Source: Escherichia phage SF
Length of the DNA stretch: 64,000 bases
Direction: 5' to 3' (one strand)
Sequence record: MH359124
Program-made: the position numbers and the translations under genes
Shown here: in pieces, positions 6,438 to 64,000 of the stretch
How the letters are laid out: each line of letters begins with the position of its first letter
Numbering within the stretch: the first letter of the stretch is position 1
Notes under the pieces: generated by a model
The model's input: only the letters and a program-made list of their open reading frames with translations
Database searches by the model: none
What the model was told of the DNA's origin: nothing

Positions 6438-6445
6438 TTTAATTC

Positions 6446-6739
6446 CTATTTTATAAAGACTTTTGACGAGGCCTGAGAAACAGTATCCCCGCATGAAATT
6501 GGGTCGGCCATTTGAACGGCCTTTTTACCGGTGACGTATACTTTAGATGTACGAGGTTCAGTAACACCTCCATGAGTCTCGTATGGTTTTTTAATTTCTG
6601 TATGAGGTGTTATTTGGTCTCCTGCCACAAGAACAGGAATACCGCCGGTGAACACTTTAGATTGGGAAGCATTTATTACAGTAGGAGGCCATGCTTCATG
6701 ACCTGATGTAACGCACTTGTCGTAACTTAAGCCAGACAT
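6446..6739 (-). CDS. 5.4: PAAR-repeat spike tip protein gp5.4
   Basis: Internal Met start [21 protein letters not shown]; 97 aa; matches T4 gp5.4. Confidence 0.8.
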
Positions 6740-8994: not shown

Positions 8995-9569
8995 TATGCA
9001 ATCTCCATCTCACGAATCAAATCTGTTATAAACGAGTTTATATCTTCTTTTGCAACGATTTTTATTTTACGAAGTTTTTCATTATCTAATACTGCCGCTT
9101 CATAAGTATCTACTGCAGCTAAAGGTCCTTTATATTGTGGATACTTACGAGCTTTATCGCCTTTATCATACCATACTAATGGCTCATCTGGATATGAAAC
9201 TAAGTTATAAAATTTCTCGCGTTTTTCGTTAATATGATAAAGAACTTGGTCTCCGCCAGCATTTGCATATTTCTGAATAGAAGCTTGATACGCTGCTTCC
9301 TGAGATGTAATCCAACCATAATACGGATCATAGTTATCATTACACATCAAAAGGACCCAGTATAATTGAGGGTTGCCATAAATTATGTTTGCTAGTTCTT
9401 CAGGACGCGGAGAGCCTTTAATGTAATAAGAACGTAATCTATAATTGGCAGCAACACGCTTAAAGTACTCTTTATAGTTACGAAATATGTCTGTCATAGG
9501 AATAGTAGGTGCGTTCTTATTAACTGTTTTAGCACTATATCCTATTGGGTCGAAGAATGTAAATAACAA
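8994..9569 (-). CDS. 53: baseplate wedge protein gp53
   Basis: 191 aa, MLFTFFDPIGYSAKTVNKNAPTIPMTDIFRNY; apparent TTG start 6 nt after AAGGAG; stop overlaps gp5 start. Confidence 0.75.
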   Translation of the reverse strand: MLFTFFDPIGYSAKTVNKNAPTIPMTDIFRNYKEYFKRVAANYRLRSYYIKGSPRPEELANIIYGNPQLYWVLLMCNDNYDPYYGWITSQEAAYQASIQKYANAGGDQVLYHINEKREKFYNLVSYPDEPLVWYDKGDKARKYPQYKGPLAAVDTYEAAVLDNEKLRKIKIVAKEDINSFITDLIREMEIA

Positions 9570-9596
9570 GATAGTCTCCTTCCAATATGAAATTGG

Positions 9597-9604
9597 TATA
9601 AATA
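9597..9604 (+). promoter_or_regulatory. late promoter TATAAATA for genes 4-2-3
   Basis: Exact TATAAATA about 27 nt upstream of gp4 ATG, followed by GGAGGA RBS. Confidence 0.55.
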
Positions 9605-9611
9605 ATAATAC

Positions 9612-9619
9612 TATTTATA
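9612..9619 (-). promoter_or_regulatory. late promoter TATAAATA (minus strand) for gene 53 block
   Basis: Complement of tatttata; divergent from the plus-strand late promoter. Confidence 0.45.
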
Positions 9620-9630
9620 AGGAGGACAAC

Positions 9631-10080
9631 ATGGCCTACTCTGGTAAATGGGTCCCAAAAAATTTAAAAAAATACCGTGGAGACCATACCAAAATAACGT
9701 ATCGTTCAAACTGGGAAAAATTCTTTTTCGAATGGTTGGATAAAAATCCAGAAATTATTGCATGGGGTAGTGAAACAGCAGTAATTCCATATTTTTGTAA
9801 TGCTGAAGGTAAGAAACGTCGATACTATATGGACATATGGATGAAAGATGCATCAGGTCAAGAGTTCTTTGTAGAAATAAAACCAAAGAAAGAAACTCAG
9901 CCGCCTATTAAGCCTGTAAATCTTACGACCGCAGCAAAGAAACGTTATATGAACGAGATCTACGTGTGGTCTGTGAACTGTGATAAATGGAAAGCTGCTT
10001 CTGCTGTCGCAGAAAAGAGAAATATAAAATTTCGAGTTCTAACCGAAGATGGACTTAGGAAACTCGGATACAAGGGGTAA
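9631..10080 (+). CDS. 4: head completion protein gp4
   Basis: Start at internal ATG after GGAGGA ([18 protein letters not shown]); 149 aa vs T4 gp4 150 aa; position before gene 2. Confidence 0.8.
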
Positions 10081-42719: not shown

Positions 42720-43193
42720 ATGTTATTATCAGGCGCAAAATACAAAGAAGAAAAACAAAAATTTTATGATGCACAGAATGGTAAGTGTCCTATTTGCCAC
42801 CGTGAATTAGACCCTGATGTTCAAGGTAACCATCTTGACCACGACCACGAATTAAACGGGCCAAAAGCAGGTAGAGTTCGTGGGTTACTCTGTAATCTGT
42901 GCAACGCAGCAGAAGGCCAAATGAAGCATAAGTTCAACCGTTCCGGTCTTAAAGGACGTGATGTCGACTACCTCGAATGGCTTGAAGCTCTTCTTGCTTA
43001 TTTGAAACAAGATTATTCTGATAATAATATCCATCCTAATTTTGTTCCAGACAAAACTAAAGAGTTCTCAAGACTAGGTAAAGAGGAAATGATGGCTGAG
43101 ATGCTTCAAAGAGGATTTGAATATAATGAATCTGATACCAAAACACAATTAATAGCTTCATTCAAAAAGCAGCTTAGAAAGAGTTTAAAATGA
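42720..43193 (+). CDS. 49: endonuclease VII (Holliday junction resolvase gp49)
   Basis: MLLSGAKYKEEKQKFYDAQNGKCPICHREL...; 157 aa; matches T4 gp49. Confidence 0.95.
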   Translation: MLLSGAKYKEEKQKFYDAQNGKCPICHRELDPDVQGNHLDHDHELNGPKAGRVRGLLCNLCNAAEGQMKHKFNRSGLKGRDVDYLEWLEALLAYLKQDYSDNNIHPNFVPDKTKEFSRLGKEEMMAEMLQRGFEYNESDTKTQLIASFKKQLRKSLK

Positions 43194-45007
43194 AAATTGA
43201 AAAAGAAATTGAAGGATTAATTCATAAAACTAATAAAGATCTTTTGAACGAGAATGCTAATAAAGATTCTCGTGTTTTTCCAACTCAACGGGACCTTATG
43301 GCTGGTATTGTGTCTAAGCACATTGCCAAAAATATGGTCCCGTCTTTTATTATGAAAGCACATGAAAGCGGAATTATCCATTTCCATGATATTGATTATT
43401 CCCCTGCACTTCCATTTACTAATTGCTGTTTAGTAGATTTAAAAGGAATGCTTGAAAACGGATTTAAGCTAGGTAACGCTCAAATTGAAACGCCTAAATC
43501 GATCGGTGTTGCTACTGCAATTATGGCACAAATTACTGCACAGGTTGCTTCTCATCAATATGGCGGAACGACTTTTGCGAATGTAGATAAAGTACTTTCT
43601 CCTTATGTTAAACGCACCTATGCAAAACATATTGAGGATGCAGAAAAATGGCAAATCGCTGATGCGTTGAATTATGCTCAATCCAAAACAGAAAAAGATG
43701 TCTATGACGCGTTCCAAGCTTATGAATATGAAGTAAATACTCTCTTTAGTTCAAACGGACAAACGCCTTTTGTAACAATTACATTTGGTACTGGAACTGA
43801 CTGGACTGAACGAATTATTCAGAAGGCAATTCTTAAAAACCGCATTAAAGGCCTTGGTCGTGATGGAATAACTCCTATTTTCCCTAAGCTTGTTATGTTC
43901 GTTGAAGAAGGCGTTAATCTTTATAAAGATGATCCAAACTATGATATTAAACAACTTGCGTTAGAATGTGCAAGCAAAAGAATGTATCCTGACATTATTT
44001 CGGTTAAGAATAATAAAGCTATTACCGGTTCTTCAGTTCCTGTTTCTCCAATGGGTTGCCGTAGTTTCTTGAGCGTATGGAAAGATTCGACTGGTAATGA
44101 AATTCTTGATGGACGTAATAATCTCGGTGTTGTAACACTGAATCTTCCTCGTATCGCATTAGATTCTTATATTGGAACACAGTTCAATGAACAGAAATTT
44201 ATTGAATTGTTCAATGAACGAATGGATTTGTGTTTTGAAGCATTGATGTGTAGAATTAGTTCTTTAAAGGGTGTTAAAGCGACTGTTGCTCCTATTCTTT
44301 ACCAAGAAGGTGCATTTGGGGTTCGTCTTAAACCTGACGATGATATAATTGAGTTATTTAAAAACGGTAGAAGTTCAGTGTCTTTAGGATACATTGGTAT
44401 TCACGAATTGAATATTCTTGTCGGTCGTGATATTGGACAAGAAATTTTGACTAAAATGAATGCTCGTCTTAAGCAGTGGACTGAAAGAACTGGATTTGCT
44501 TTTAGTTTATACTCTACTCCTGCTGAAAACCTTTGTTATCGCTTCTGTAAACTTGATACTGAAAAATATGGAAGTGTAAAGGATGTTACTGATAAAGGCT
44601 GGTACACTAATAGTTTCCATGTTTCAGTAGAAGAAAATATCACTCCGTTTGAAAAGATTTCTCGCGAAGCCCCATATCATTTCATTGCGACAGGCGGTCA
44701 CATTTCTTATGTTGAACTTCCTGATATGAAAAATAACTTAAAAGGTCTTGAGGCTGTCTGGGATTACGCTGCACAACATTTAGATTATTTTGGTGTTAAT
44801 ATGCCAGTAGATAAATGTTTTACATGTGGAAGTACACATGAAATGACTCCTACTGAAAACGGATTTGTTTGTTCTATTTGTGGAGAAACTGATCCTAAAA
44901 AGATGAACACCATAAGAAGAACATGCGGTTATCTTGGAAATCCGAACGAACGTGGATTTAATCTCGGCAAAAATAAAGAAATCATGCATAGGGTTAAACA
45001 CCAATGA
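43190..45007 (+). CDS. nrdD: anaerobic ribonucleoside-triphosphate reductase NrdD
   Basis: 605 aa as T4 NrdD; C-terminal CxxC...CxxC and glycyl radical motif RRTCGYLG; uninterrupted (no intron). Confidence 0.95.
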   Translation: MKIEKEIEGLIHKTNKDLLNENANKDSRVFPTQRDLMAGIVSKHIAKNMVPSFIMKAHESGIIHFHDIDYSPALPFTNCCLVDLKGMLENGFKLGNAQIETPKSIGVATAIMAQITAQVASHQYGGTTFANVDKVLSPYVKRTYAKHIEDAEKWQIADALNYAQSKTEKDVYDAFQAYEYEVNTLFSSNGQTPFVTITFGTGTDWTERIIQKAILKNRIKGLGRDGITPIFPKLVMFVEEGVNLYKDDPNYDIKQLALECASKRMYPDIISVKNNKAITGSSVPVSPMGCRSFLSVWKDSTGNEILDGRNNLGVVTLNLPRIALDSYIGTQFNEQKFIELFNERMDLCFEALMCRISSLKGVKATVAPILYQEGAFGVRLKPDDDIIELFKNGRSSVSLGYIGIHELNILVGRDIGQEILTKMNARLKQWTERTGFAFSLYSTPAENLCYRFCKLDTEKYGSVKDVTDKGWYTNSFHVSVEENITPFEKISREAPYHFIATGGHISYVELPDMKNNLKGLEAVWDYAAQHLDYFGVNMPVDKCFTCGSTHEMTPTENGFVCSICGETDPKKMNTIRRTCGYLGNPNERGFNLGKNKEIMHRVKHQ

Positions 45008-45474
45008 ATTATGATAGATTTTATCCTTGCGATTTTGTGAATGGCCCTGGATGCAGGGTCGTTCTTTTCGTTACAGGTTGTTTGCATAAATGCGAGGGGT
45101 GTTATAATAAATCAACATGGAATGCTAGAAACGGTATTCCATTCACTGGTGAAACACTAGAACAATTAATTGAATGTTTGAATAATGATTATATAGAAGG
45201 ATTAACTATAACTGGAGGAGACCCTCTCTATCCTGATAACCGAGATGTTATTCACTCTGTAGTTCAAACAGTAAAAAATCTTTATCCCAATAAAAGCATT
45301 TGGTTGTGGACAGGATATAAGTTTGAAGATATTAAACAACTAGAAATGCTTAAATATGTTGATGTTATTATTGATGGGAAGTATGAGAAAAATCTTCCGA
45401 CTAAAAAACTGTGGCGAGGATCAGATAATCAGCGACTTTGGTCAAATACCGATGGGGTGTGGAAACATGATTAA
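45004..45474 (+). CDS. nrdG: anaerobic RNR activating protein NrdG (radical SAM)
   Basis: CDFVNGPGCRVVLFVTGCLHKCEGC; 156 aa. Confidence 0.9.
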   Translation: MNYDRFYPCDFVNGPGCRVVLFVTGCLHKCEGCYNKSTWNARNGIPFTGETLEQLIECLNNDYIEGLTITGGDPLYPDNRDVIHSVVQTVKNLYPNKSIWLWTGYKFEDIKQLEMLKYVDVIIDGKYEKNLPTKKLWRGSDNQRLWSNTDGVWKHD

Positions 45475-48908: not shown

Positions 48909-49466
48909 ATGACTGAACAAAAACCTAAAAATAACTATGTGAATAATAAAGAGCTTCTCGCCGCTATAATCGAGTGGAAAAAGGAGCTCTTAAATAATAA
49001 AGACCCAAACAAAATTATTCGTCAGAATGATACCATCGGTTTAGCAATTATGCTTATCGCCGAAGGCCTATCCAAACGTTTCAACTTTTCAGGATATACC
49101 CAATCTTGGAAGCAGGAGATGATTGCAGATGGGATTGAAGCCTCTATTAAGGGACTTCATAATTTCGACGAAACCAAGTACAATAACCCACATGCATACA
49201 TAACTCGAGCTTGTTTTAATGCTTTTGTCCAACGTATCAAAAAAGAACGTAAGGAAGTTGCAAAGAAATATAGTTACTTCGTTCATAACGTCTACGACAG
49301 TCATGACGATGATATGGTAGCGTTGGTAGATGAAACGTTTATTCAAGACATCTACGATAAAATGACGCATTATGAAGAATCCGCTTATAAAGCTCCTGGG
49401 GCTGAAAAGAAGGAAGTTGTTAGCGATTCGCCTAGTTTGGATTTTTTATATGAGGATGACAATTGA
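48909..49466 (+). CDS. 55: late-transcription sigma factor gp55
   Basis: 185 aa; [49 protein letters not shown]; matches T4 gp55. Confidence 0.95.
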
Positions 49467-49665
49467 CATCTCTAACTACTTAGAAGAACCTTTTGACGAA
49501 GCAATCCCTTATTTGGTAAAACTGTTGGGTCGTGAATTTAAAATTAATTTTGACATCGACCCTTTGAACCCACATGACGTGTCATTTTCGATAAATGGGA
49601 CTCCGGTTGAGTATGAGTTCTGTATTGAAGAGGATGGACGTTTTTATTTTAATTTAATGAGATAA
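49456..49665 (+). CDS. hypothetical protein
   Basis: Internal ATG start [13 protein letters not shown]. Confidence 0.5.
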
Positions 49666-49666
49666 T

Positions 49667-49990
49667 ATGACTACCGAGATTATTGAAAATAAAGAAGCGG
49701 AAGATGCAGTAGCTAAAATGCTACAAGAAATCCAAAAGAAAAATGAAGCTGAAGCACGTAAAAAATCCGAAAAGATTCTTAAAAAGAATCGTTTTGAACT
49801 AAACCGTCTTTATGCTCATGCTCAAGAAGCAGCAATTCAAAACAACTTCGAAGCTTATGAATATGCTATTAAGAAATCTCGGGATATTCTACGACAACCA
49901 TATAATGACAAGTTAATTAAAATCCAGTGGGTTACTACTCGTCAGGCTATTGAGGACATCATTAATGGCGCTAGTTCAAACAAAGTTTAA
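49667..49990 (+). CDS. hypothetical protein
   Basis: 107 aa. Confidence 0.5.
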   Translation: MTTEIIENKEAEDAVAKMLQEIQKKNEAEARKKSEKILKKNRFELNRLYAHAQEAAIQNNFEAYEYAIKKSRDILRQPYNDKLIKIQWVTTRQAIEDIINGASSNKV

Positions 49991-50171
49991 ACGTCTTAAT
50001 CTGAACGCAGGATTCACCCTTAAATTGGGAGGTCCTCTTTGTGTTAAAATTTCCGAAAAGGAATATCACGACGGTTCTATTACAGAAATTTGTCCGCCTA
50101 TTGTAAAGGCAGACCCAAAACAACTCGTGTGGGTTGATTCATTTCAAGTTAAGAAATGGTGGAAACGATGA
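49965..50171 (+). CDS. hypothetical protein
   Basis: MALVQTKFKRLNL. Confidence 0.4.
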   Translation: MALVQTKFKRLNLNAGFTLKLGGPLCVKISEKEYHDGSITEICPPIVKADPKQLVWVDSFQVKKWWKR

Positions 50172-50210
50172 GAGAAATCGATTTAGGTATTTTCTGAGAG
50201 GTGATTATGC

Positions 50211-50384
50211 ATGACGAACGACCCGACCTCTGAAAATTTCGATAAAATCCGTAAAGGCAAAGCAGAAAGAATGAGACGTTTTAAAGAGTCTTATGATAAA
50301 GCTAAAGCCGAAGGAACTATTACATACAAGCCCATTCGATTTAAAAGTTCAAATGAGCCTCTGTACGGTGTACTATGTGGATAG
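50211..50384 (+). CDS. small basic protein (57 aa)
   Basis: ATG after GAGGTGATT; MTNDPTSENFDKIRKGKAERMRRFK; followed by terminator. Confidence 0.45.
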   Translation: MTNDPTSENFDKIRKGKAERMRRFKESYDKAKAEGTITYKPIRFKSSNEPLYGVLCG

Positions 50385-50410
50385 GAACTCTTCGGAGTTC
50401 CTTTTTTTTT
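50383..50410 (+). terminator. rho-independent terminator AGGAACTC-TTCG-GAGTTCCT-T9
   Basis: 8 bp stem, tetraloop, nine Ts. Confidence 0.8.
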
Positions 50411-50456
50411 GCTTTATAAACGGATGATAGAATGAATTAACTAATGAGGAAATAAT

Positions 50457-51476
50457 ATGAAAATTTTGCACTTAGGCGACTTCCATATCGGAGTCAAACA
50501 AGACGACCCATGGGTTCAAGATATTCAACGTGATGGTATTCGTCAAGCAATTGAATACTCTAAGAAACACGGGATTAAAACTTGGATTCAATACGGTGAC
50601 TGGTTTGACGTCCGTAAAGCAATAACACATCGTACAATGGAATTCAATCGTGAAATCGTTGATATGATTTCTAAAGCAGGCATTCACGTTCATGTCACGA
50701 TAGGAAACCATGACATGGCGTTTAAGAATACAATAACACCTAACACTGTTTCCGAATTGTTAACTCAATTTGAAAACTTTACTATTTACGAGCATCCAAC
50801 TACTGTAGATTTTGACGGATGTCTGATTGATATCGTTCCATGGATGTGTGAAGAAAATACAGGTGAAATCTTAGAGCACATCAAGACTTCTTCCGCAGCG
50901 TATTGTGTTGGGCACTGGGAACTGAATGGCTTTTATTTCTATAAAGGAATGAAGTCTCATGGGCTTGAACCTGATTTCTTAAAGACTTATAAACAAGTCT
51001 GGTCCGGCCACTTCCACACAATCTCTGAAGCTGCTAACGTCAAATATATTGGGACACCATGGACCCTTACTGCAGGTGATGAGAACGACCCGCGCGGATT
51101 CTGGGTATTTGACACTGATGTTGAACGTATGGAATTTATTCCTAATGAAACAACATGGCATCGACGAATCACTTATCCGTTTAAAGGCAAAATCAATTAT
51201 TCTGATTATACTAATATAGCCTTACGTGTTATAGTATCAGAAATTGATTCAGAGTTGACTAAGTTTGAATCTGAACTTGAAAAAGTAGTTCACTCTCTTC
51301 GTATGGTTTCTAAAGTTGATAACAGTGTTGAATCTGATGACGACCAGGAAATCGAGATTAAATCACTTCAAGATATCATTAAAGAATATATTGACGCGAT
51401 TCCAGATATCTCAGACGAAGACAGAGAAGTGCTGGTCAAATATTCCAACGAACTTTATATTGAGGCAACACAATGA
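50457..51476 (+). CDS. 47: recombination endonuclease subunit gp47 (Mre11-like)
   Basis: 339 aa; MKILHLGDFHIG and GNHD phosphoesterase motifs; matches T4 gp47. Confidence 0.95.
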   Translation: MKILHLGDFHIGVKQDDPWVQDIQRDGIRQAIEYSKKHGIKTWIQYGDWFDVRKAITHRTMEFNREIVDMISKAGIHVHVTIGNHDMAFKNTITPNTVSELLTQFENFTIYEHPTTVDFDGCLIDIVPWMCEENTGEILEHIKTSSAAYCVGHWELNGFYFYKGMKSHGLEPDFLKTYKQVWSGHFHTISEAANVKYIGTPWTLTAGDENDPRGFWVFDTDVERMEFIPNETTWHRRITYPFKGKINYSDYTNIALRVIVSEIDSELTKFESELEKVVHSLRMVSKVDNSVESDDDQEIEIKSLQDIIKEYIDAIPDISDEDREVLVKYSNELYIEATQ

Positions 51477-57097: not shown

Positions 57098-59809
57098 ATG
57101 AAAGAATTTTACTTAACGGTTGAACAGATTGGTGATTCAATTTTCGAACGTTATATCGATTCTAACGGACGTGAACGTGTTCGTGAAGTAGAGTATAAGC
57201 CCTCGTTGTTTGCACATTGTCCAGAAAGTCAGGCCACGAAATATTTTGATATCTATGGTAAACCTTGTACTCGTAAACTGTTCGCTAACATGCGTGACGC
57301 GTCTCAATGGATTAAACGCATGGAAGATATCGGACTTGAAGCACTTGGCATGGACGATTTCAAATTGGCGTATTTGTCTGACACTTATAACTATGAAATC
57401 AAATATGACCATACAAAAATTCGTGTGGCTAACTTCGACATCGAAGTAACATCTCCGGACGGGTTCCCTGAGCCGTCACAAGCAAAACATCCGATTGATG
57501 CTATTACCCATTATGACTCAATTGACGACAGGTTCTACGTATTTGATCTATTGAATTCTCCATATGGTAATGTAGAAGAATGGTCTATCGAAATTGCGGC
57601 TAAGCTTCAAGAACAAGGTGGTGATGAAGTTCCGTCTGAAATTATCGATAAAATCATTTATATGCCGTTCGATAACGAAAAAGAATTGTTGATGGAATAT
57701 CTCAACTTCTGGCAACAGAAAACTCCTGTCATTTTGACTGGATGGAACGTTGAGTCATTTGATATTCCATATGTGTATAACCGAATCAAGAATATTTTTG
57801 GCGAATCTACCGCGAAACGTTTATCACCACATCGTAAAACTCGTGTTAAAGTTATCGAAAACATGTATGGTTCTCGTGAAATCATTACATTGTTCGGTAT
57901 CTCTGTTCTTGATTACATTGACCTTTACAAAAAATTCTCTTTTACCAATCAACCGTCATATTCTCTGGATTACATTTCAGAATTTGAATTGAACGTTGGT
58001 AAACTGAAATATGACGGCCCTATTTCTAAGCTTCGTGAAAGCAATCACCAACGATATATTTCTTATAACATTATCGACGTGTATCGTGTATTGCAAATTG
58101 ATGCTAAGCGTCAGTTCATCAACTTGAGTTTGGACATGGGTTATTATGCTAAGATACAGATTCAATCTGTGTTTAGTCCAATTAAAACATGGGATGCTAT
58201 TATTTTTAATAGCCTTAAAGAGCAGAACAAGGTGATTCCACAAGGTCGTTCTCACCCGGTTCAACCTTATCCTGGCGCTTTTGTTAAGGAACCTATTCCA
58301 AATCGATACAAATATGTAATGAGTTTCGACCTTACATCTCTGTATCCAAGTATTATTCGCCAAGTGAATATTAGCCCGGAAACAATAGCAGGAACGTTTA
58401 AAGTAGCTCCACTGCATGATTATATTAATGCAATCGCTGAACGTCCTTCTGATGTGTACAGTTGCTCTCCTAACGGCATGATGTATTATAAAGACCGTGA
58501 TGGTGTAGTTCCAACTGAAATCACTAAGGTCTTTAATCAACGTAAAGAACATAAAGGTTACATGCTTGCAGCTCAACGTAATGGTGAAATAATTAAAGAG
58601 GCATTGCATAATCCTAATCTTTCTGTTGACGAACCATTAGATGTTGATTATCGTTTCGACTTCAGCGATGAGATTAAAGAAAAGATTAAAAAGTTGTCTG
58701 CTAAATCTCTTAATGAAATGTTGTTTAGAGCTCAACGTACTGAAGTTGCAGGTATGACTGCACAGATTAACCGTAAATTGCTCATCAACTCGCTTTATGG
58801 TGCACTTGGAAACGTTTGGTTCCGTTATTACGATTTGCGTAATGCTACTGCAATCACAACATTTGGTCAAATGGCTTTACAGTGGATTGAACGTAAAGTT
58901 AATGAATATCTGAATGAAGTTTGTGGTACAGAAGGCGAAGCTTTCGTTCTATATGGTGATACAGACTCCATTTACGTATCTGCAGATAAAATTATTGATA
59001 AGGTTGGTGAATCTAAATTCCGTGATACCAACCATTGGGTAGACTTCTTAGATAAGTTTGCACGTGAACGTATGGAACCTGCTATTGATAGAGGTTTCCG
59101 TGAAATGTGCGAATACATGAATAATAAGCAACATTTGATGTTCATGGACCGAGAAGCTATCGCTGGGCCTCCACTCGGTTCTAAAGGTATTGGTGGATTC
59201 TGGACTGGTAAGAAACGTTATGCCTTAAACGTGTGGGATATGGAAGGTACTCGTTACGCTGAGCCTAAACTCAAAATCATGGGTCTAGAGACTCAGAAAT
59301 CTTCGACTCCTAAAGCAGTACAGAAAGCTCTTAAAGAATGTATTCGTCGTATGCTTCAAGAAGGTGAAGAATCATTACAAGAATATTTTAAAGAGTTTGA
59401 AAAAGAATTCCGTCGATTGAATTATATTAGCATCGCGTCGGTATCTTCTGCGAATAACATTGCTAAATATGATGTAGGTGGATTCCCTGGTCCCAAATGC
59501 CCGTTCCATATTCGTGGAATTCTGACGTATAACCGGGCTATCAAAGGTAATATCGATGCACCGCAAGTTGTAGAAGGTGAAAAAGTATATGTTCTGCCTT
59601 TACGTGAAGGAAACCCATTCGGTGATAAATGTATCGCATGGCCTTCTGGTACTGAAATCACAGATTTAATTAAAGACGACGTACTTCATTGGATGGACTA
59701 CACTGTTCTCCTTGAGAAGACATTTATTAAACCACTTGAAGGATTCACATCAGCAGCGAAACTCGATTATGAGAAGAAAGCATCTCTGTTCGATATGTTC
59801 GATTTTTGA
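57098..59809 (+). CDS. 43: DNA polymerase gp43 (family B)
   Basis: 903 aa; exonuclease FDIE, polymerase motifs SLYPS and YGDTDS; N-terminus MKEFYLTVEQIGDSIFERYID like T4 gp43. Confidence 0.97.
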   Translation: MKEFYLTVEQIGDSIFERYIDSNGRERVREVEYKPSLFAHCPESQATKYFDIYGKPCTRKLFANMRDASQWIKRMEDIGLEALGMDDFKLAYLSDTYNYEIKYDHTKIRVANFDIEVTSPDGFPEPSQAKHPIDAITHYDSIDDRFYVFDLLNSPYGNVEEWSIEIAAKLQEQGGDEVPSEIIDKIIYMPFDNEKELLMEYLNFWQQKTPVILTGWNVESFDIPYVYNRIKNIFGESTAKRLSPHRKTRVKVIENMYGSREIITLFGISVLDYIDLYKKFSFTNQPSYSLDYISEFELNVGKLKYDGPISKLRESNHQRYISYNIIDVYRVLQIDAKRQFINLSLDMGYYAKIQIQSVFSPIKTWDAIIFNSLKEQNKVIPQGRSHPVQPYPGAFVKEPIPNRYKYVMSFDLTSLYPSIIRQVNISPETIAGTFKVAPLHDYINAIAERPSDVYSCSPNGMMYYKDRDGVVPTEITKVFNQRKEHKGYMLAAQRNGEIIKEALHNPNLSVDEPLDVDYRFDFSDEIKEKIKKLSAKSLNEMLFRAQRTEVAGMTAQINRKLLINSLYGALGNVWFRYYDLRNATAITTFGQMALQWIERKVNEYLNEVCGTEGEAFVLYGDTDSIYVSADKIIDKVGESKFRDTNHWVDFLDKFARERMEPAIDRGFREMCEYMNNKQHLMFMDREAIAGPPLGSKGIGGFWTGKKRYALNVWDMEGTRYAEPKLKIMGLETQKSSTPKAVQKALKECIRRMLQEGEESLQEYFKEFEKEFRRLNYISIASVSSANNIAKYDVGGFPGPKCPFHIRGILTYNRAIKGNIDAPQVVEGEKVYVLPLREGNPFGDKCIAWPSGTEITDLIKDDVLHWMDYTVLLEKTFIKPLEGFTSAAKLDYEKKASLFDMFDF

Positions 59810-59849
59810 TATAATGACATGGACGGTAAACTAATTAAATGAGAGAAAT

Positions 59850-60485
59850 ATGAAAACTACTCCTATTACTATCGCTATTGACGCAATCATAAAACAAGCT
59901 TCTTCTTTGGCCGCTATGGCCAAAGTAATTAGTCAAAACCCTGCTCGTTATAATGCTATTTTAGAAACTCTTCGACGCCCGGGACTTAGTAATTATGAAA
60001 GCCGAGTAATTATTACAGGTGTTGGTAAGAACGCTAATATCGCAACTAAAGCTTCTGAGACTTTTGCTTCACTCGGTATACCGAGTATGTACTTGAACAC
60101 TGGGCATTATTCTCACGGTGATGCAGGATTCATTGCGCCTAATGATGTGTTGATTCATATTAGTCGTTCTGGTAAAACTGAAGAAATGATAGGTGTGGCT
60201 AAGCATCTTAAAATGATTCGTCCGAACGTCAAACAGATTCTGTTGCATTGTAACCCAGACATTCCGCAAGAAAATGAAGCCCTTTTTGATTACTCTTTCT
60301 GTACAGGCATCGCTGTAGAAGTTGACGAGAACTCTTTAGCTCCGACTATGTCCACTACATTGTTGTTAGCGCTTATCGATACGTTTGCTATCAACCTTTC
60401 GTCTGAACGTGGATTTACCTCTAATGACTTCCTTAAGTTCCACCCTGGTGGTGCACTAGGTGCCATGTTACGAGGCGAACAATGA
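59850..60485 (+). CDS. SIS-domain sugar-phosphate isomerase (GmhA/KdsD-like)
   Basis: ITGVGKNANIATKASETFASLGIPSMYLNTGHYSHGD matches SIS phosphosugar-binding fold; 211 aa, no CBS domains. Confidence 0.7.
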   Translation: MKTTPITIAIDAIIKQASSLAAMAKVISQNPARYNAILETLRRPGLSNYESRVIITGVGKNANIATKASETFASLGIPSMYLNTGHYSHGDAGFIAPNDVLIHISRSGKTEEMIGVAKHLKMIRPNVKQILLHCNPDIPQENEALFDYSFCTGIAVEVDENSLAPTMSTTLLLALIDTFAINLSSERGFTSNDFLKFHPGGALGAMLRGEQ

Positions 60486-60625
60486 AAGCAATAACAATAG
60501 GACTTTTACTATTGATGCTTGTCATGACTATCTACTGGAGCTTAACGGCTCCAGTAATGGTCCCGACTCTTATAATCGGATGGATTATGATTGGACTACA
60601 AGCAAAGTATGAATGCTTTAACTAG
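60482..60625 (+). CDS. small hydrophobic membrane peptide (47 aa)
   Basis: ATGA-coupled; MKAITIGLLLLMLVMTIYWSLTAPVMVPTLIIGWIMIGL; below track cutoff. Confidence 0.4.
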   Translation: MKAITIGLLLLMLVMTIYWSLTAPVMVPTLIIGWIMIGLQAKYECFN

Positions 60626-60666
60626 AATAGTGTACAATACTCCTACTTACCAATGAGGACCACAAC

Positions 60667-62352
60667 ATGAAAAAAGCTGTTATTCTTGGTGCTGGACTGG
60701 CAACTCGTTTGTATCCAATAACGCATCATATTCCTAAGGTGCTTGTTAACTATAAACAAGACACTATTCTGAGCAATTTGTATACAATCTATTCTGACCT
60801 TGGCGCAGATGAAATTATTGTAGTAGTTCATTCAAAATTTGCTGAAACCGTTCGAGCTTATTGTGAGCAAGAAGGGTTCAATGTGACTATTCGTACAGTT
60901 GATGAAGCGTATGGTTCTGCTTATGCTCTTGCTAAATTACACAAAGATTTAGACGGCCATAATGTAATTGTTAACTGGTGTGATATTATTCCCGATTTTG
61001 GTTCATGGTCTTGGAATGTTAACGCAATCTATGTTAAGGGTGACGAATGTCGATATAATTTCGACGGTGAAAATATCACTAACGTAGGTTCAACAGGTGG
61101 TAATGTTGTAGGAATTTATCAGTTCAAAGACTGGGAATTCTATATGGGTTCTACTGATGAGGAAATTCATGAATACTGCAAAGGACGCGATTTCGTAGAA
61201 TTCCTTTACGGCAGTGCATTCAATAAATCAGAGCTTATGAATCTAATTGATTTAGGTGATATGCCTAAACTTGAAAAAGCTCATGAAGTTCGTGAACTTA
61301 ATCGTAGTTTTAATGCAGTTGAAATTGGTGAAGAAACTGTAACTAAATTCGCATTAACCGAACAGGGTCGAGCTCTTCAGAAAGATGAGATTTCGTGGTA
61401 TCTTAAAGTGAAATCAGATTCAGTTCCTCAGTTAGTTTCTGTTAATGAAAATAACTTTGAAATGGAACGCATTAAAGGTAAGCCGGCATTTGAATATATT
61501 AAATCCAAATCAAGTCTTGCTCGACCACAAATTGTTGATGCAATCTTAGATGCACTGAAATTCAGCACAGACACTTATTTTGTAAGTCCTGAAACTGTTC
61601 GTCGTGATTTCACTAAAGAATTCTATACTAAAGTTATTGATCGTTGCGAAAGTATTCAACCATTGATTGATTCATTTGGTAAAATCACACATGTGAACTA
61701 CACTAAGATCGGACGTCTGAAGCCAATGTTGAAACAAGCTTTAGAACACCTTATTCGTTATCATAACCGTTCTCAGGGACAGTACTCTGTTATTCATGGC
61801 GACCCGAACTTCAGTAATACTATGATTACTGATAATGGTGAAGTCAAGTTTATCGACCCTCGTGGATATTTTGGCGAAACCAAGATTTACGGACCAAAAT
61901 TGTATGATGAAGCTAAAGTGCTTTACGCCGTTTCAGGTTATGATGAATTCAACGCTAATCCGACCTGGGGGCAGTTTACTATTGATGAAACAACTTGTAA
62001 TGTGACTATTAACATCAATCCATTAGTTTACAAATATGGAAAGATGAGTTCGTTTAACGAGTATCATCATTTGGCAGTGGCAATTATCTGGATTGCATTA
62101 GGTGGTTATTTCAAGAATAATCCACTTAAAGCGGTAGCCGCATATTATAAAGGTATGGAACTTCTGACTAAGCAATTACGTAACATGGGCCGTGTACTTC
62201 AGGACGGCTCTATTAGTTACGACGTAGCAGAACCTGTAACGGCTACTCTGATTACAAAAAATCCTGGTAAATGGGTACTAACTGATAAAGAAACTGGTGT
62301 TTCTTATCGTCCAATCGGTGGCGATATCACTCATCAATGGGAACGAATCTAA
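60667..62352 (+). CDS. bifunctional sugar-1-phosphate nucleotidyltransferase / APH-type sugar kinase
   Basis: N-terminal AVILGAGLATRLYPIT...PKVLV (RmlA/GlmU-type NTase signature); C-terminal VIHGDPNFSNTMIT and IDPRGYFG (aminoglycoside/choline/anomeric kinase motifs); 561 aa. Confidence 0.7.
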   Translation: MKKAVILGAGLATRLYPITHHIPKVLVNYKQDTILSNLYTIYSDLGADEIIVVVHSKFAETVRAYCEQEGFNVTIRTVDEAYGSAYALAKLHKDLDGHNVIVNWCDIIPDFGSWSWNVNAIYVKGDECRYNFDGENITNVGSTGGNVVGIYQFKDWEFYMGSTDEEIHEYCKGRDFVEFLYGSAFNKSELMNLIDLGDMPKLEKAHEVRELNRSFNAVEIGEETVTKFALTEQGRALQKDEISWYLKVKSDSVPQLVSVNENNFEMERIKGKPAFEYIKSKSSLARPQIVDAILDALKFSTDTYFVSPETVRRDFTKEFYTKVIDRCESIQPLIDSFGKITHVNYTKIGRLKPMLKQALEHLIRYHNRSQGQYSVIHGDPNFSNTMITDNGEVKFIDPRGYFGETKIYGPKLYDEAKVLYAVSGYDEFNANPTWGQFTIDETTCNVTININPLVYKYGKMSSFNEYHHLAVAIIWIALGGYFKNNPLKAVAAYYKGMELLTKQLRNMGRVLQDGSISYDVAEPVTATLITKNPGKWVLTDKETGVSYRPIGGDITHQWERI

Positions 62353-62738
62353 TGCACCGTGTAGAAAACATGCTTAATCTTTGTTTTGATGTCGATGATT
62401 GTATAACAGAGTGGAATAACAATCGTGATTACGTGAACTTCAAACCAGACGTCGAAATGGTGTCTGCCATTAATGCCCTGTATGATGCAGGGCATACCAT
62501 AACGCTTTACACTGCTCGCGGTATGAAGTCAGTCGGTCCTGGTCGTATAGCAATTGACATTCTCCCAAGTCTGATTCAGAACTTGTCAAACATTGGATTG
62601 AAGTACCATAATTTGCTAACACATAAACCAGTATATGATTGGATTATCGACGACAAAGCTATGCGTCCTGACGAATTCAAAGCTCTTATGAATAAAGGCG
62701 AATTCGAAACATTTAAATCATATAAACCGAATCTATAA
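62352..62738 (+). CDS. HAD-superfamily phosphatase-like protein
   Basis: Motif I LCFDVDDCIT (atypical), motif IV DWIIDDK; start may be 62337. Confidence 0.55.
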   Translation: MHRVENMLNLCFDVDDCITEWNNNRDYVNFKPDVEMVSAINALYDAGHTITLYTARGMKSVGPGRIAIDILPSLIQNLSNIGLKYHNLLTHKPVYDWIIDDKAMRPDEFKALMNKGEFETFKSYKPNL

Positions 62739-62798
62739 TAATTTAAGTAAGACCTGCAAAAACCATCGCGTCAATTAACGTGAGATGCAAAAAAAAAA

Positions 62799-63959
62799 AT
62801 GAATACTTTTAAAATCGGAACGAATTTTGATTTAGCTCTTCTTGATAAAATCGTAGAGCTCAATAAAACTTATCCTAATAGCTTGATAAACGAAGTATAC
62901 GGCTCTACAAGAGAAATGGCTTTTGTAGCAGCCAGACCTGATTTTAGGCTTCCTGACGTTGACAAAAAGATGTTAGAAGATTACGTTAAACGTTGTAACG
63001 AATTGGGTATTTGCTTTAACTATACACTCAACACGATAAATCCTGGTTCAAAAAGAGAACTAGTTGAGTGGAAGAAGAAAGCTATTCAGGATTATGTTCA
63101 GTATCTTTGGTCAATAGGTGTATGGCGTATTACTATCGCTAACCCTGTTGTTATGGAAATTGTTCGTGAAGTCAATAAAGACATTGAGATTGAAGTTTCA
63201 ACAATTCTACATGTCGATGCTGTAACTCAAATCAAATACTTGCATGACCAATATAATATCAAAAAGGTCTGCTGTGGAATTCATAAGAACCGTTCAGTTT
63301 CTTTCCTGAAGCGTGCAGCAGAGTTTTGTAATAAGAACAATATAATATTTGAAGTTCTCGTAAATGAATTCTGCTCTAATGCTGGTAAAGGGTATACAAC
63401 ACATTGTAGCTATCGTGACTCTTGCTATATTTTCCATAGCACCGATGTTACAGTAGATGATGCCAAATCCTTAAATGGATATCCAATGCAACACTGTATT
63501 AAAGCTCGTGATACAGATCCATTTAACTGGTTGAGAACTCGTTTTGTTCGTCCTCAAGATTTGAAACTTTATAATGATATTGGTATCACTCAATTTAAAG
63601 TTTCGGGACGTACAGGTAGCACAGACTACATTTTGAAAGTTCTTGAAGCTTATGCTTCTGAAAAGTTTGAAGGTAATTTGTTAGAACTGTGGAAGCCTTT
63701 AGAGACCATTTTCACTCTTGAAAATGAGACCGAGTTTTCACATACGGTAAATATTGAAACCTCTTTGTTAGATGGCTTTTTAGAAAAAAGGTGGTTCAAA
63801 CATCCGGATTTCGATTGTGCTAATGAAATCTGCGGGACGACGTGTACATATTGTGAAAGATATTATAAACGTCAGTTATCTAAAAATGGGTTATCAGAAA
63901 ACTCTATATCTATTATTGATATAACTAACTCTGATGACGCTTTGAGGTACCCAGAATGA
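62799..63959 (+). CDS. U32-family (peptidase U32 / RlhA-TrhP-UbiU-like) protein with CxxxCxxC cluster
   Basis: EVLVNEFCSNAGKGYTTHCSYRDSC resembles U32 signature EVFAFGSLC..GRCYLS; FKVSGRTGS resembles U32 KIEGR; C-terminal CANEICGTTCTYC. Confidence 0.55.
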   Translation: MNTFKIGTNFDLALLDKIVELNKTYPNSLINEVYGSTREMAFVAARPDFRLPDVDKKMLEDYVKRCNELGICFNYTLNTINPGSKRELVEWKKKAIQDYVQYLWSIGVWRITIANPVVMEIVREVNKDIEIEVSTILHVDAVTQIKYLHDQYNIKKVCCGIHKNRSVSFLKRAAEFCNKNNIIFEVLVNEFCSNAGKGYTTHCSYRDSCYIFHSTDVTVDDAKSLNGYPMQHCIKARDTDPFNWLRTRFVRPQDLKLYNDIGITQFKVSGRTGSTDYILKVLEAYASEKFEGNLLELWKPLETIFTLENETEFSHTVNIETSLLDGFLEKRWFKHPDFDCANEICGTTCTYCERYYKRQLSKNGLSENSISIIDITNSDDALRYPE

Positions 63960-64000
63960 TTTCTAGAAAAAACTTTTAACCACCAACTTAACGAAGAGAT

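Follow-up and report, generated by a model that had tools for sequence, protein, structure and literature searches.

Directly downstream of its DNA polymerase gene, Escherichia phage SF (sequence record MH359124; "the window" denotes the whole stretch of 64,000 nt analysed here) very probably carries two distinct units, i.e. a three-gene UDP-D-arabinofuranose pathway and a separate U32 module. By orthology to characterised proteins, the three genes are firmly assigned as the phage pathway for UDP-D-arabinofuranose. The sugar-nucleotide reading given in an earlier note on this DNA is correct, yet it had been published before (2018; 2025–2026). In contrast to this known sugar route, what is new is the function proposed for the U32 protein. 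It may well be a prephenate-dependent Fe-S hydroxylase that does not need O2 and, under anaerobic conditions, produces 5-hydroxy-dCMP or a closely related derivative.

Five ORFs on the plus strand follow directly after the gene for the RB69-type DNA polymerase gp43 (57098–59809), in the order SIS isomerase, 47-aa ORF, NTase-kinase fusion, HAD phosphatase, and U32 protein; neighbouring genes lie close together or overlap. The four proteins named in the earlier note were all found where it had placed them, on the plus strand directly behind gp43. Mosigvirus phages, RB69 and HY126 among them, have counterparts of the five products at 99–100% identity. With megablast, 80% or more of the region is covered by 151 phage records; identities of 95–99% are seen in 149 records, and the close matches are Mosigvirus. 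The concern that the motifs could be chance matches is answered by the profile E-values and the orthology, which place the locus far beyond chance.

The first ORF (59850–60485, plus strand, 211 aa) encodes the ortholog of RB69 gp55, a SIS-only D-arabinose-5-phosphate isomerase, as indicated by profiles, PDB matches, and the published role. The protein matches Pfam SIS (1e-10), the NCBIfam models KpsF/GutQ (2e-32) and KdsD (7e-31), phrog_5670 (4e-116), and the PDB entries 3ETN (2.6e-25), 2XHZ (3.5e-19), and 5UQI; unlike KdsD, it has no CBS domains. The second, a 47-aa hydrophobic ORF in the frame of RB69 ORF054c (60482–60625, plus strand), was missing from the list of the earlier note. It is annotated in relatives and matches phrog_3610 over its full length (1e-26), whereas the overlapping 50-aa frame (60460–60612) gave no phrog match; it probably encodes a real small membrane protein.

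The third ORF (60667–62352, plus strand, 561 aa) encodes the bifunctional NTase-kinase, i.e. RB69 gp52:53 or HY126 AfhE, identified by its NTP_transferase domain, kinase motifs, and the published role. It is 99.6% identical to the RB69 protein and 100% identical to that of JS09. The N-terminus matches NTP_transferase in Pfam (8.5e-10), and the fusion matches PDB 1JYK (2e-5). For the kinase half, Pfam matches are all below threshold (Fructosamin_kin 0.0034, APH 0.034), and the catalytic-loop motifs HGDPNFSN and FIDPRG are present. The HAD-type phosphatase, i.e. RB69 gp51 or HY126 AfhF (62337–62738, plus strand, 133 aa), gave no match in the Pfam search, but is identified by TIGR01689, a capsule-biosynthesis phosphatase model (3.5e-13), by the DVDD motif I, and by the PDB entries 9IQW (2.1e-87) and 1XPJ (2.8e-10). 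In relatives, its start is annotated at 62352. Near-identical structures have been deposited for the phosphatase (9IQW) and for the ThyA-like protein (9IQC/9IR2/9IQU).

Lee et al. (NAR 2026; PMC13326640) assign RB69 gp55, gp52:53, and gp51 to sugar-nucleotide steps and also give a summary of the biochemistry of HY126 AfhE and AfhF (He et al. 2026). The published route runs from Ru5P via Ara5P, Ara-1,5-P2, and Ara-1-P to UDP-arabinofuranose, the donor for phage cytosine glycosylation (PMC13326640). In phage SF, the SIS isomerase would divert ribulose-5-P to arabinose-5-P, the C-terminal APH-like kinase half would phosphorylate C1 to yield arabinose-1,5-bisphosphate, the HAD phosphatase would remove the 5-phosphate, and the N-terminal NTase half would convert Ara-1-P and UTP to UDP-Araf. 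The glycosyltransferases gp46:47 (beyond the window) and gp3 (elsewhere in the genome) would then transfer arabinose onto 5-hydroxycytosine in DNA, giving mono- and di-arabinosyl-5hoC and blocking restriction. The published roles, which were assigned later than the first report of arabinosylation in RB69, match the proposal of the earlier note that isomerase, kinase, phosphatase, and NTase together turn a ketose phosphate into an NDP-sugar for a non-glucose DNA hypermodification. Arabinosyl-hmC had been suggested as one possible product; the arabinose was right and hmC was not, because the base is 5-hydroxycytosine bearing an ether-linked arabinofuranose. RB69 virion DNA carries arabinosyl-5hoC (chemistry in PMC13326640), and DNA arabinosyltransferases use UDP-Araf in vitro.

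The genes for the hydroxylase, the glycosyltransferase, and the kinase fall outside the window, downstream of its end, and are known from relatives. In relatives with 98% identity, the order is U32, gp49, ThyA-like protein, glycosyltransferase, and kinase, and in them a glycosyltransferase does lie where the earlier note had predicted one. The expected homolog of gene 42 turned out to be a flavin/O2-dependent dCMP 5-hydroxylase and not a hydroxymethylase; the oxygen introduced by this ThyA-like enzyme comes from O2, as found by 18O2 labelling. As stated earlier, the alpha-gt slot between gene 55 (48909–49466) and gene 47 (50457–51476) contains no glycosyltransferase, only small DUF5491, DUF2654, and DUF5486 ORFs.

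The last complete ORF of the window (62799–63959, plus strand, 386 aa) encodes the U32-family Fe-S protein, RB69 gp50, identified by the Peptidase_U32 profile (6.3e-11, 42.4 bits versus a cut-off of 22.4), the predicted fold, and invariant cysteines. The AF2 model has a pLDDT of 92.5, and 5D88 is the top PDB fold. When the family profile was aligned with the four E. coli U32 paralogs using hhalign, RlhA, which makes 5-hydroxycytidine in 23S rRNA, scored best (E 8.8e-6, 205 columns), and the signature Cys pair aligned with C203/C209 of RlhA. Nine cysteines are invariant across 56 homologs with identities down to 47%; the alignment recovers only two of the four canonical Cys positions of the cluster, and the rest would have to be supplied by other invariant cysteines. 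No NCBIfam equivalog covers the phage U32 protein, the sole match being UbiU (4.8e-4). Within the cluster, no protein is more conserved than U32 (80–87% identity, compared with 64–79% for DNA polymerase). The 220 phage records that contain it are all at least 80% identical, and the named hosts are Enterobacterales or Shewanella. The NTase-kinase occurs in 57 Acinetobacter phage records, none of which is among these 220. Acinetobacter is a strict aerobe. However, Dhakavirus phages of E. coli have the pathway and lack U32, and therefore host physiology is no clean predictor of its presence.

The gene next to U32 links it to prephenate synthesis in relatives. T4-like relatives have a gene for chorismate mutase, the enzyme that produces prephenate, between U32 and the O2/flavin-dependent dCMP 5-hydroxylase. 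The pairing was found in 56 phage records, with zero, one, or two small ORFs in the gap, and the neighbour is a clear chorismate mutase (Pfam CM_2, 40.9 bits versus a GA of 27; PDB 1YBZ, 2.5e-16). It occupies the gp49 slot in non-Mosigvirus relatives (CM_2 2.4e-10 for the slot protein Entb_45). RB69 gp49 has no similarity to chorismate mutase, and the slot holds none in RB69 or in the window. The ORF in this slot of the window (63956–64000, plus strand) starts at an ATGA overlap with the U32 stop, as seen in the sequence and the alignment, and is cut short to MISRKNF* by one additional A within a run of A. In Shewanella phage Thanatos, U32 and chorismate mutase have remained neighbours at a changed position relative to the ThyA-like gene. 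Among 31 divergent viral loci with U32 (44–58% identical), a gp46:47-like glycosyltransferase is present in 22, the NTase-kinase in 15, SIS and a gp45-like kinase in nine each, and a DAHP synthase-chorismate mutase fusion in four; individual loci also contain a KdsC-like HAD protein, dCMP deaminase, or dUTPase. A ThyA-like protein is encoded within 10 kb in none of the 31, in contrast to 15 of 15 T4-like loci, although genes more than 10 kb away are possible.

The U32 family is tied to prephenate-dependent anaerobic hydroxylation, and its characterised members are Fe-S proteins required for hydroxylations, although direct hydroxylase activity in vitro has been demonstrated for no U32 protein (PMC10990095). 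This family chemistry, the paralogy to RlhA, the linkage to chorismate mutase, the divergent loci without ThyA, and the absence from Acinetobacter phages together argue for a probable anaerobic route to 5-hydroxy-dC. U32 would do under anaerobic conditions what the flavin/O2-dependent ThyA-like 5hodCMP synthase, encoded two genes downstream, does with O2. This Mosigvirus would draw its prephenate from host PheA/TyrA, whereas relatives carry their own chorismate mutase.

The earlier note had counted U32 as a member of the sugar module. As a reductase, epimerase, or other tailoring enzyme, it would act on arabinose or an arabinose nucleotide, which we consider unlikely. U32 follows directly on the phosphatase gene within one operon-like array, adjoins SIS, NTase-kinase, and HAD genes in many divergent loci, and is called a "sugar or heterocycle reductase" in Table 1 of PMC13326640. 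However, every step of the published route from Ru5P to UDP-Araf is accounted for without U32, and arabinosylating Acinetobacter and Dhakavirus phages have the sugar genes and lack U32. It remains 80–87% identical where the NTase-kinase has drifted to 44–54%, and clusters organised around another sugar gene, that for UDP-galactopyranose mutase, retain it as well. Nor would a sugar role account for the linkage to chorismate mutase or DAHP synthase.

Somewhat less probable still is a role in RNA hydroxylation, in which U32, with chorismate mutase, would adapt rRNA or tRNA of host or phage to the translation of phage genes and its position in the cluster would be incidental. This would fit RlhA as the closest characterised paralog, and the characterised U32 enzymes target RNA, except for UbiU/V, which act on ubiquinone (PMC10990095). 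Yet the gene is always found within nucleotide/DNA-modification clusters, in unrelated phage lineages, next to genes for nucleotide kinase, DNA-type glycosyltransferase, dCMP deaminase, dUTPase, NT5C, and dNK, and profile searches detected neither RNA-binding domains nor the extra C-terminal domains of RlhA/TrhP.

A role of the complete cassette in modifying the cell envelope (capsule, LPS, or receptor) instead of DNA, which the earlier note itself had listed as a case that would refute its reading, is very improbable. It might be suggested by names given by annotation or depositors ("capsule biosynthesis protein", "GlmU", "phosphoheptose isomerase") and by the envelope-sugar functions of bacterial KpsF and KdsD. 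However, the arabinose is found in RB69 virion DNA and its donor serves DNA arabinosyltransferases in vitro, the cassette is flanked in every relative by DNA polymerase on one side and by the base hydroxylase, DNA glycosyltransferase, and nucleotide kinase on the other, and neither a membrane glycosyltransferase nor a flippase is present. A true peptidase or collagenase function of U32, as most phage records ("peptidase", "collagenase-like protease") and phrog_5757 have it, can practically be dismissed, because the family name is historical and its characterised members are the above-mentioned Fe-S proteins (PMC10990095), Cys clusters dominate the invariant residues, and the genes that accompany it encode nucleotide, sugar, and prephenate enzymes.

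The preferred reading, a sugar pathway plus an anaerobic U32 hydroxylase, can be compared with several known systems. The Afh cluster of RB69/HY126 (gp55, gp52:53, gp51, gp50, gp49, gp48, gp46:47, gp45) has the same gene order and post-gp43 position, and the HY126-type structures 9IQW and 9IQC match; the differences are that the NTase-kinase is intact at 561 aa in the window and split in the RB69 reference record, and that the gp49-slot ORF is frameshifted in the window. The GmhA-HldE-GmhB route, the analogy drawn in the earlier note, has the same reaction logic, i.e. SIS isomerase, anomeric kinase to a bisphosphate, HAD phosphatase, and NTase, with kinase and transferase in one polypeptide as in the phage fusion. 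However, the phage SIS protein is of the KpsF/KdsD type, the transferase is GlmU/RmlA/MurU-like, and the kinase is APH/choline-kinase-like, whereas that of HldE is PfkB-type; the phage pathway acts on a pentose and yields UDP-Araf instead of an ADP-heptose.

The phage U32 protein shares the Pfam domain, the TIM-barrel fold, and the E-F...C-x5/6-C-Y signature with RlhA (ho5C2501 in 23S rRNA), TrhP (ho5U34 in tRNA), and UbiU/UbiV (anaerobic ubiquinone), and its genomic coupling to prephenate synthesis matches their prephenate dependence. RlhA is required for C5 hydroxylation of cytosine, the very chemistry needed here. In contrast to the cellular enzymes, the phage proteins form a distinct subfamily of about 360–390 aa that have a set of invariant cysteines of their own and, at the C-terminus, the motif CX4CX3CX2C. 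They are encoded within deoxynucleotide and glycosyltransferase clusters, and therefore their substrate is presumably a DNA precursor and not RNA or a quinone. The pairing of aerobic and anaerobic enzymes has parallels in the NrdAB-type and NrdDG reductases of the same phage (NrdD and NrdG are encoded in the window), and in UbiH/F/I with UbiU/V and TrhO with TrhP of E. coli.

Glucosylation of hmC in T4 (gp42, alpha-gt, beta-gt, host UDP-glucose) follows the same strategy in the same neighbourhood, i.e. cytosine is modified at the mononucleotide level and the DNA is then glycosylated; homologs of alpha-gt and beta-gt were not found in their T4 slots within the window. In contrast to T4, the hydroxyl group sits directly on C5, without CH2OH, and the arabinose donor is not a host metabolite and is therefore made by phage enzymes.

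The DNA polymerase gene (57098-59809, + strand), which we take to be an RB69-type gene 43, is directly followed by five tightly spaced ORFs on the + strand, and the GC content of this array, 35-42%, is even with that of its flanks. Domain searches identified ORF1 (59850-60485, 211 aa) as an SIS isomerase gene and, together with sequence motifs, ORF3 (60667-62352, 561 aa) as an NTase-kinase gene. ORF4 (62337-62738, 133 aa) was recognized as a HAD phosphatase gene by an NCBIfam model and a PDB match, and ORF5 (62799-63959, 386 aa) as a U32 gene by Peptidase_U32. Between the genes for the isomerase and the NTase-kinase lies a strongly hydrophobic ORF of 47 aa (60482-60625), which is matched along its entire length by phrog_3610 (1e-26), and the overlapping 50-aa frame at 60460-60612 has no match. 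A scan of 59700-64000 for promoters and terminators gave 10 hits, compared with 15.6 expected from shuffles, i.e. no enrichment, and is therefore uninformative.

The 4.1-kb region matched 194 phage records by megablast, the close ones being Mosigvirus. The coverage was at least 80% in 151 of the 194 records, and the identity was 95-99% in 149. The U32 protein has 100% identity in HX01 and S143_2, 99.5% in HY126, and 99.2% in RB69, while the 561-aa NTase-kinase is 100% identical in JS09 and 99.6% identical to RB69 gp52:53 over the full length. This near-identity of DNA and proteins to Mosigvirus shows that the module is real and that the window derives from an RB69-like coliphage. In the RB69 reference NC_004928 (locus L003 of our collection of U32 loci), the NTase-kinase is broken into ORF053c/052c (4873-6559) and the glycosyltransferase into ORF047c/046c (9156-10056). 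Both are single intact genes in most relatives, and the NTase-kinase is intact in the window, in agreement with the explanation that the RB69 splits are sequencing errors (PMC13326640).

ORF1 matches Pfam SIS (1e-10), the NCBIfam models KpsF/GutQ (2e-32) and KdsD (7e-31), phrog_5670 (4e-116), and the solved structures 3ETN (2.6e-25) and 2XHZ, and is an SIS-only arabinose-5-phosphate isomerase. The N-terminus of ORF3 matches NTP_transferase (8.5e-10), an archaeal GlmU-type model (7e-14) and PDB 1JYK (2e-5). Its C-terminal half has kinase matches below threshold only, and contains HGDPNFSN and FIDPRG, motifs of the APH/choline-kinase type (HGDxxxxN / IDxxG). ORF3 is thus an AfhE-type fusion of an N-terminal sugar-1-P nucleotidyltransferase with a C-terminal kinase. 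No Pfam match was found for ORF4, which matches the capsule-biosynthesis HAD phosphatase model TIGR01689 (3.5e-13) and the solved structure 9IQW (E 2.1e-87) and is an AfhF-type HAD phosphatase. PDB entry 9IQW is a near-identical counterpart of this enzyme, and 9IQC/9IR2/9IQU correspond in the same way to RB69 gp48.

Arabinose on RB69 DNA was reported by Thomas et al. 2018 (PMC6024577), and mono- and poly-arabinosyl 5-hydroxycytosine was described in RB69 and in Acinetobacter phage DLP3 (Lee et al., NAR 2026, PMC13326640), the RB69 virion modification being established via LC-MS and NMR. According to that study, gp48 is a flavin-containing ThyA homolog that hydroxylates at the dCMP level with O2 as the oxygen source, gp55 isomerizes Ru5P to Ara5P, the C-terminal domain of gp52:53 is an Ara5P 1-kinase, gp51 is the 5-phosphatase, and the N-terminal domain of gp52:53 is a UDP-Araf pyrophosphorylase. 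For the sugar-enzyme roles it cites the HY126 AfhE/AfhF biochemistry of He et al. 2026. The pathway lets RB69-type phages cover their cytosines with arabinose and evade restriction and some CRISPR systems. In 98%-identical relatives, gp49 comes after U32, and then the genes of the ThyA-like hydroxylase, of the first arabinosyltransferase, and of a nucleotide kinase; the window ends at 64000, before the last three of these genes.

The earlier note, which had proposed a sugar-nucleotide module after gene 43, was correct and well reasoned: all of its ORFs are present and near-identical in Mosigvirus, and the isomerase, kinase, phosphatase, and nucleotidyltransferase route to an NDP-sugar matches the RB69 assignments. 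The glycosyltransferase it expected past the window end exists, since the 98%-identical relatives carry an arabinosyltransferase there. Of the arabinosyl-hmC modification it cited for RB69, the arabinose holds, and the base is 5-hydroxycytosine (5hoC) instead of hmC (PMC13326640). The sugar module is a known system, biochemically characterized in near-identical phages, and counts only as confirmation; the added value lies in the U32 gene.

The ORF5 product passes the Pfam Peptidase_U32 cut-off of 22.4 with 42.4 bits, and its AF2 model (pLDDT 92.5, pTM 0.91) has the U32 structure 5D88 as the top solved fold match (E 2.8e-7, TM 0.69 on target). PDB sequence searches with the single protein and with a 56-sequence profile retrieved no relative, and 5D88 was reached by the fold search only. 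With hhalign, the profile aligned to E. coli RlhA over 205 columns (E 8.8e-6). The alignments to TrhP (2.6e-3) and UbiU (7e-3) were weaker, and UbiV gave none. None of the NCBIfam equivalogs for these four proteins scored above its cut-off, the best being UbiU with 19 bits against 440. Judged by these comparisons, the phage proteins form a subfamily apart from RlhA, TrhP, UbiU, and UbiV.

U32 proteins are seen as Fe-S enzymes needed for O2-independent hydroxylation with prephenate as the oxygen donor, and the characterized members are UbiU/V, RlhA, needed for 5-hydroxycytidine in 23S rRNA, and TrhP, needed for 5-hydroxyuridine in tRNA (PMC10990095). In the phage protein, C203/C209 align with the signature pair C169/C176 of RlhA, and the positions of RlhA C192/C196 are not Cys. 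As only two canonical cluster residues out of four are aligned, the protein plausibly, though not certainly, has an Fe-S site. Residues C158, C192, C203, C209, and C233 and a C-terminal C340-x4-C345-x3-C349-x2-C352 motif do not vary in homologs with as little as 47% identity, and C158, C192, and C233 might substitute for the two missing cluster residues. RB69 gp50 appears only in a table of PMC13326640, labelled "sugar or heterocycle reductase", and the text of that paper mentions neither U32 nor prephenate nor chorismate. Phage U32 is likewise undiscussed in the Thanatos and Durham Collection papers, and full-text searches gave no open paper that connects it with prephenate or hydroxylation. 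The PHROGs label of the family (phrog_5757), "peptidase", looks outdated.

By tblastn, U32 was found in 220 phage records, all with at least 80% identity and with Enterobacterales or Shewanella as the named hosts, and the NTase-kinase was found in 375, of which 57 are Acinetobacter phages. Acinetobacter phage Lazarus and the E. coli Dhakavirus QL01 have the NTase-kinase, HAD, ThyA-like, and glycosyltransferase genes and lack U32, showing that U32 is dispensable for arabinosylation as such. The four-gene module of the earlier note is therefore retained for its three sugar genes, and the fourth gene should be set apart. U32 is the most conserved cluster protein across seven genera: the identities to the window phage are 80-87% for U32, 72-83% for the ThyA-like enzyme, 64-79% for the DNA polymerase, and 44-73% for the NTase-kinase.

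In Enterobacter phage Entb_45, a chorismate mutase gene overlaps the U32 stop codon and precedes the ThyA-like gene. Its product scores 40.9 bits for Pfam CM_2 (GA 27), and the phage profile matches PDB 1YBZ with 2.5e-16. This chorismate mutase occurs in 56 records, always adjoining U32 or at most two small ORFs away, in phages of Klebsiella, Serratia, Yersinia, Enterobacter, Edwardsiella, Erwinia, Proteus, Pectobacterium, Providencia, Morganella, and Shewanella. In Thanatos, a phage of Shewanella, U32 and the chorismate mutase gene have been shifted as a unit across the ThyA-like, glycosyltransferase, and kinase genes. The family (L002 8158-8397 and homologs, phrog_10027) is of "unknown function" in PHROGs, an annotation that looks outdated, and mostly hypothetical in GenBank.

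With the phage chorismate mutase as the tblastn query, no copy was found in Mosigvirus, where the gp49 slot holds an unrelated 79-aa gene (phrog_8601). That RB69 gp49 is a diverged chorismate mutase was rejected, as it had no Pfam or NCBIfam match and an hhalign probability of 0.04%. In the window, the ORF in this slot (63956-63979) overlaps the U32 stop with ATGA, and one extra A relative to RB69, in the A-run at 63966-63971, reduces it to seven codons (MISRKNF*). In 308Ecol101PP, gp49 is frameshifted differently; a sequencing error or the decay of a dispensable gene could be the cause. In some T4-like relatives, a 212-aa ORF lies between the HAD and U32 genes (L024 9361-9999; also L028, L029, and L031). 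It was considered as a redox partner and rejected, because by eye it contains GIY-YIG/NUMOD-like repeats, and it is probably a homing endonuclease.

Metagenomic viral contigs contain many U32 homologs with 44-58% identity. We collected 31 such divergent loci, which include several near-duplicates and represent about eight architectures, and counted neighbours with HMMs made from the T4-like cluster proteins, in comparison with 15 T4-like loci. A gp46:47-like glycosyltransferase, often directly upstream of U32 with overlapping stop and start codons, is present in 22 of the 31 divergent and all 15 T4-like loci. The respective values near U32 are 15/31 and 15/15 for the NTase-kinase, 9/31 and 7/15 for SIS, and 9/31 and 15/15 for a gp45-like kinase. 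In contrast, a ThyA-like protein within the DNA covered, up to 10 kb on each side of U32, is found in none of the 31 divergent loci, compared with 15/15. A search of L041 and L052 for a TET/JBP or ThyA-type oxidase among unannotated neighbours was negative. The divergent U32 thus takes the ThyA-like slot in the kinase/glycosyltransferase/hydroxylase set, a pattern of non-orthologous displacement.

Further neighbours of divergent U32 genes are KdsC-like HAD phosphatases, NT5C, deoxynucleoside kinase, dUTPase, a TAGT-like glycosyltransferase, and UDP-galactopyranose mutase. In phages with PolIII-alpha replicases, genes for a nucleotide kinase, a gp46:47-like glycosyltransferase, and U32 form compact modules without a ThyA-like gene nearby; the order is kinase-GT-U32-PolIII alpha in L036, L040, L047, and L058, and kinase-GT-U32-TAGT-dUTPase-...-GLF in L010 and L041. 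These modules may represent new systems of DNA hypermodification, in some cases with a sugar of the galactofuranose type. A dCMP deaminase gene lies immediately upstream of some divergent U32 genes, as in L004 (7447-9086, a 466-kb contig), where the two overlap, and in L008 (5504-7083, a related 60-kb contig), which hints at uracil, not cytosine, as the substrate in these phages. In L043 (8689-9951), the gene immediately upstream of U32 is of the IS605 OrfB/TnpB type, with OrfB_IS605 and Cas12f1-like TNB domains.

DAHP synthase genes also lie near divergent U32 genes. Four encode fusions with a chorismate mutase domain of the CM_2 family (L044 8411-9433, L055 11079-12197, L045, and L046), and those of L007 and L034 are unfused, so that these uncultivated phages carry shikimate-pathway genes. 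That the DAHP_synth_1 proteins are KDO8P synthases, which would link them to Ara5P, was rejected, as they match DAHP synthase with 2.6e-70 versus 2.9e-17 for KDO8P, and some are fused to CM_2. The adjacent chorismate mutase and the DAHP synthase-chorismate mutase fusions couple the U32 subfamily to prephenate synthesis by two unrelated architectures.

An O2-independent route would be needed, because the known hydroxylase requires O2 and these phages, which prey on gut bacteria, have all of their cytosine replaced; their hosts are facultative anaerobes. The window phage is equipped for anaerobic dNTP synthesis, since it encodes NrdD (5e-273) and the activase NrdG (3e-59) at 43190-45474. On the simplest reading, to which we give an even chance, U32 supplies the 5-hydroxy-dC nucleotide without O2, fed by the host or a phage chorismate mutase. 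The broader proposal, that the RB69 gp50 family founds a phage subfamily of enzymes that hydroxylate pyrimidine DNA precursors at C5 in a prephenate-dependent, O2-independent way, is in our judgement equally balanced between true and false. In T4-like enterobacterial phages, U32 would serve as the anaerobic counterpart of the O2- and flavin-dependent ThyA-like 5hodCMP synthase, often together with a chorismate mutase of the phage itself. For many uncultivated phages it would be the sole base hydroxylase, in one set with sugar-nucleotide genes and the genes for a nucleotide kinase and a DNA glycosyltransferase, to which a fusion of DAHP synthase and chorismate mutase is sometimes added.

Of the two main alternatives, a sugar-tailoring role, compatible with the reductase label of gp50 and the position beside the sugar genes, appears unlikely, as arabinosylation clusters exist without U32. 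Hydroxylation of RNA, the activity of the best-aligned relative RlhA, is quite improbable, the gene being embedded in nucleotide or DNA-modification clusters in unrelated phage lineages. Weak points of anaerobic hydroxylation of a DNA precursor are the partly conserved Cys motif, the E. coli Dhakaviruses that lack U32, and the partial survey of the divergent contigs. If true, it would be the first case of a U32 enzyme acting on a DNA precursor and of a virus using prephenate as its oxygen donor, would explain the replication of fully 5hoC-substituted phages in the anoxic gut, and would carry the newly recognized anaerobic hydroxylation from RNA and quinones over to DNA precursors. U32 with a kinase and a glycosyltransferase, and without a ThyA-like gene, would then be a marker for hypermodified DNA in uncultivated phages.

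The locus differs from that of T4, in which alpha-gt lies between genes 55 and 47 and gene 43 is followed by beta-gt and gene 42. In the window, the arabinose genes follow gene 43 instead, and the alpha-gt slot (49466-50457) contains three small ORFs only (within 49372-50384), DUF5491, DUF2654, and DUF5486, confirming that it lacks a glycosyltransferase. The analogy with GmhA-HldE-GmhB, with the kinase acting before the phosphatase, agrees with the published reaction order of the arabinose route. However, the ADP-heptose pathway uses the GmhA isomerase, the GmhB phosphatase, and a single protein that joins a PfkB-type kinase and a cytidylyltransferase-like adenylyltransferase, whereas the window encodes an SIS isomerase of the KpsF/KdsD type, an APH-like kinase, and a GlmU/RmlA-like NTase, and no GmhA, HldE, or PfkB model is among the Pfam and NCBIfam matches of the array proteins. 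The arabinose locus thus works like the heptose route but with different enzyme families.
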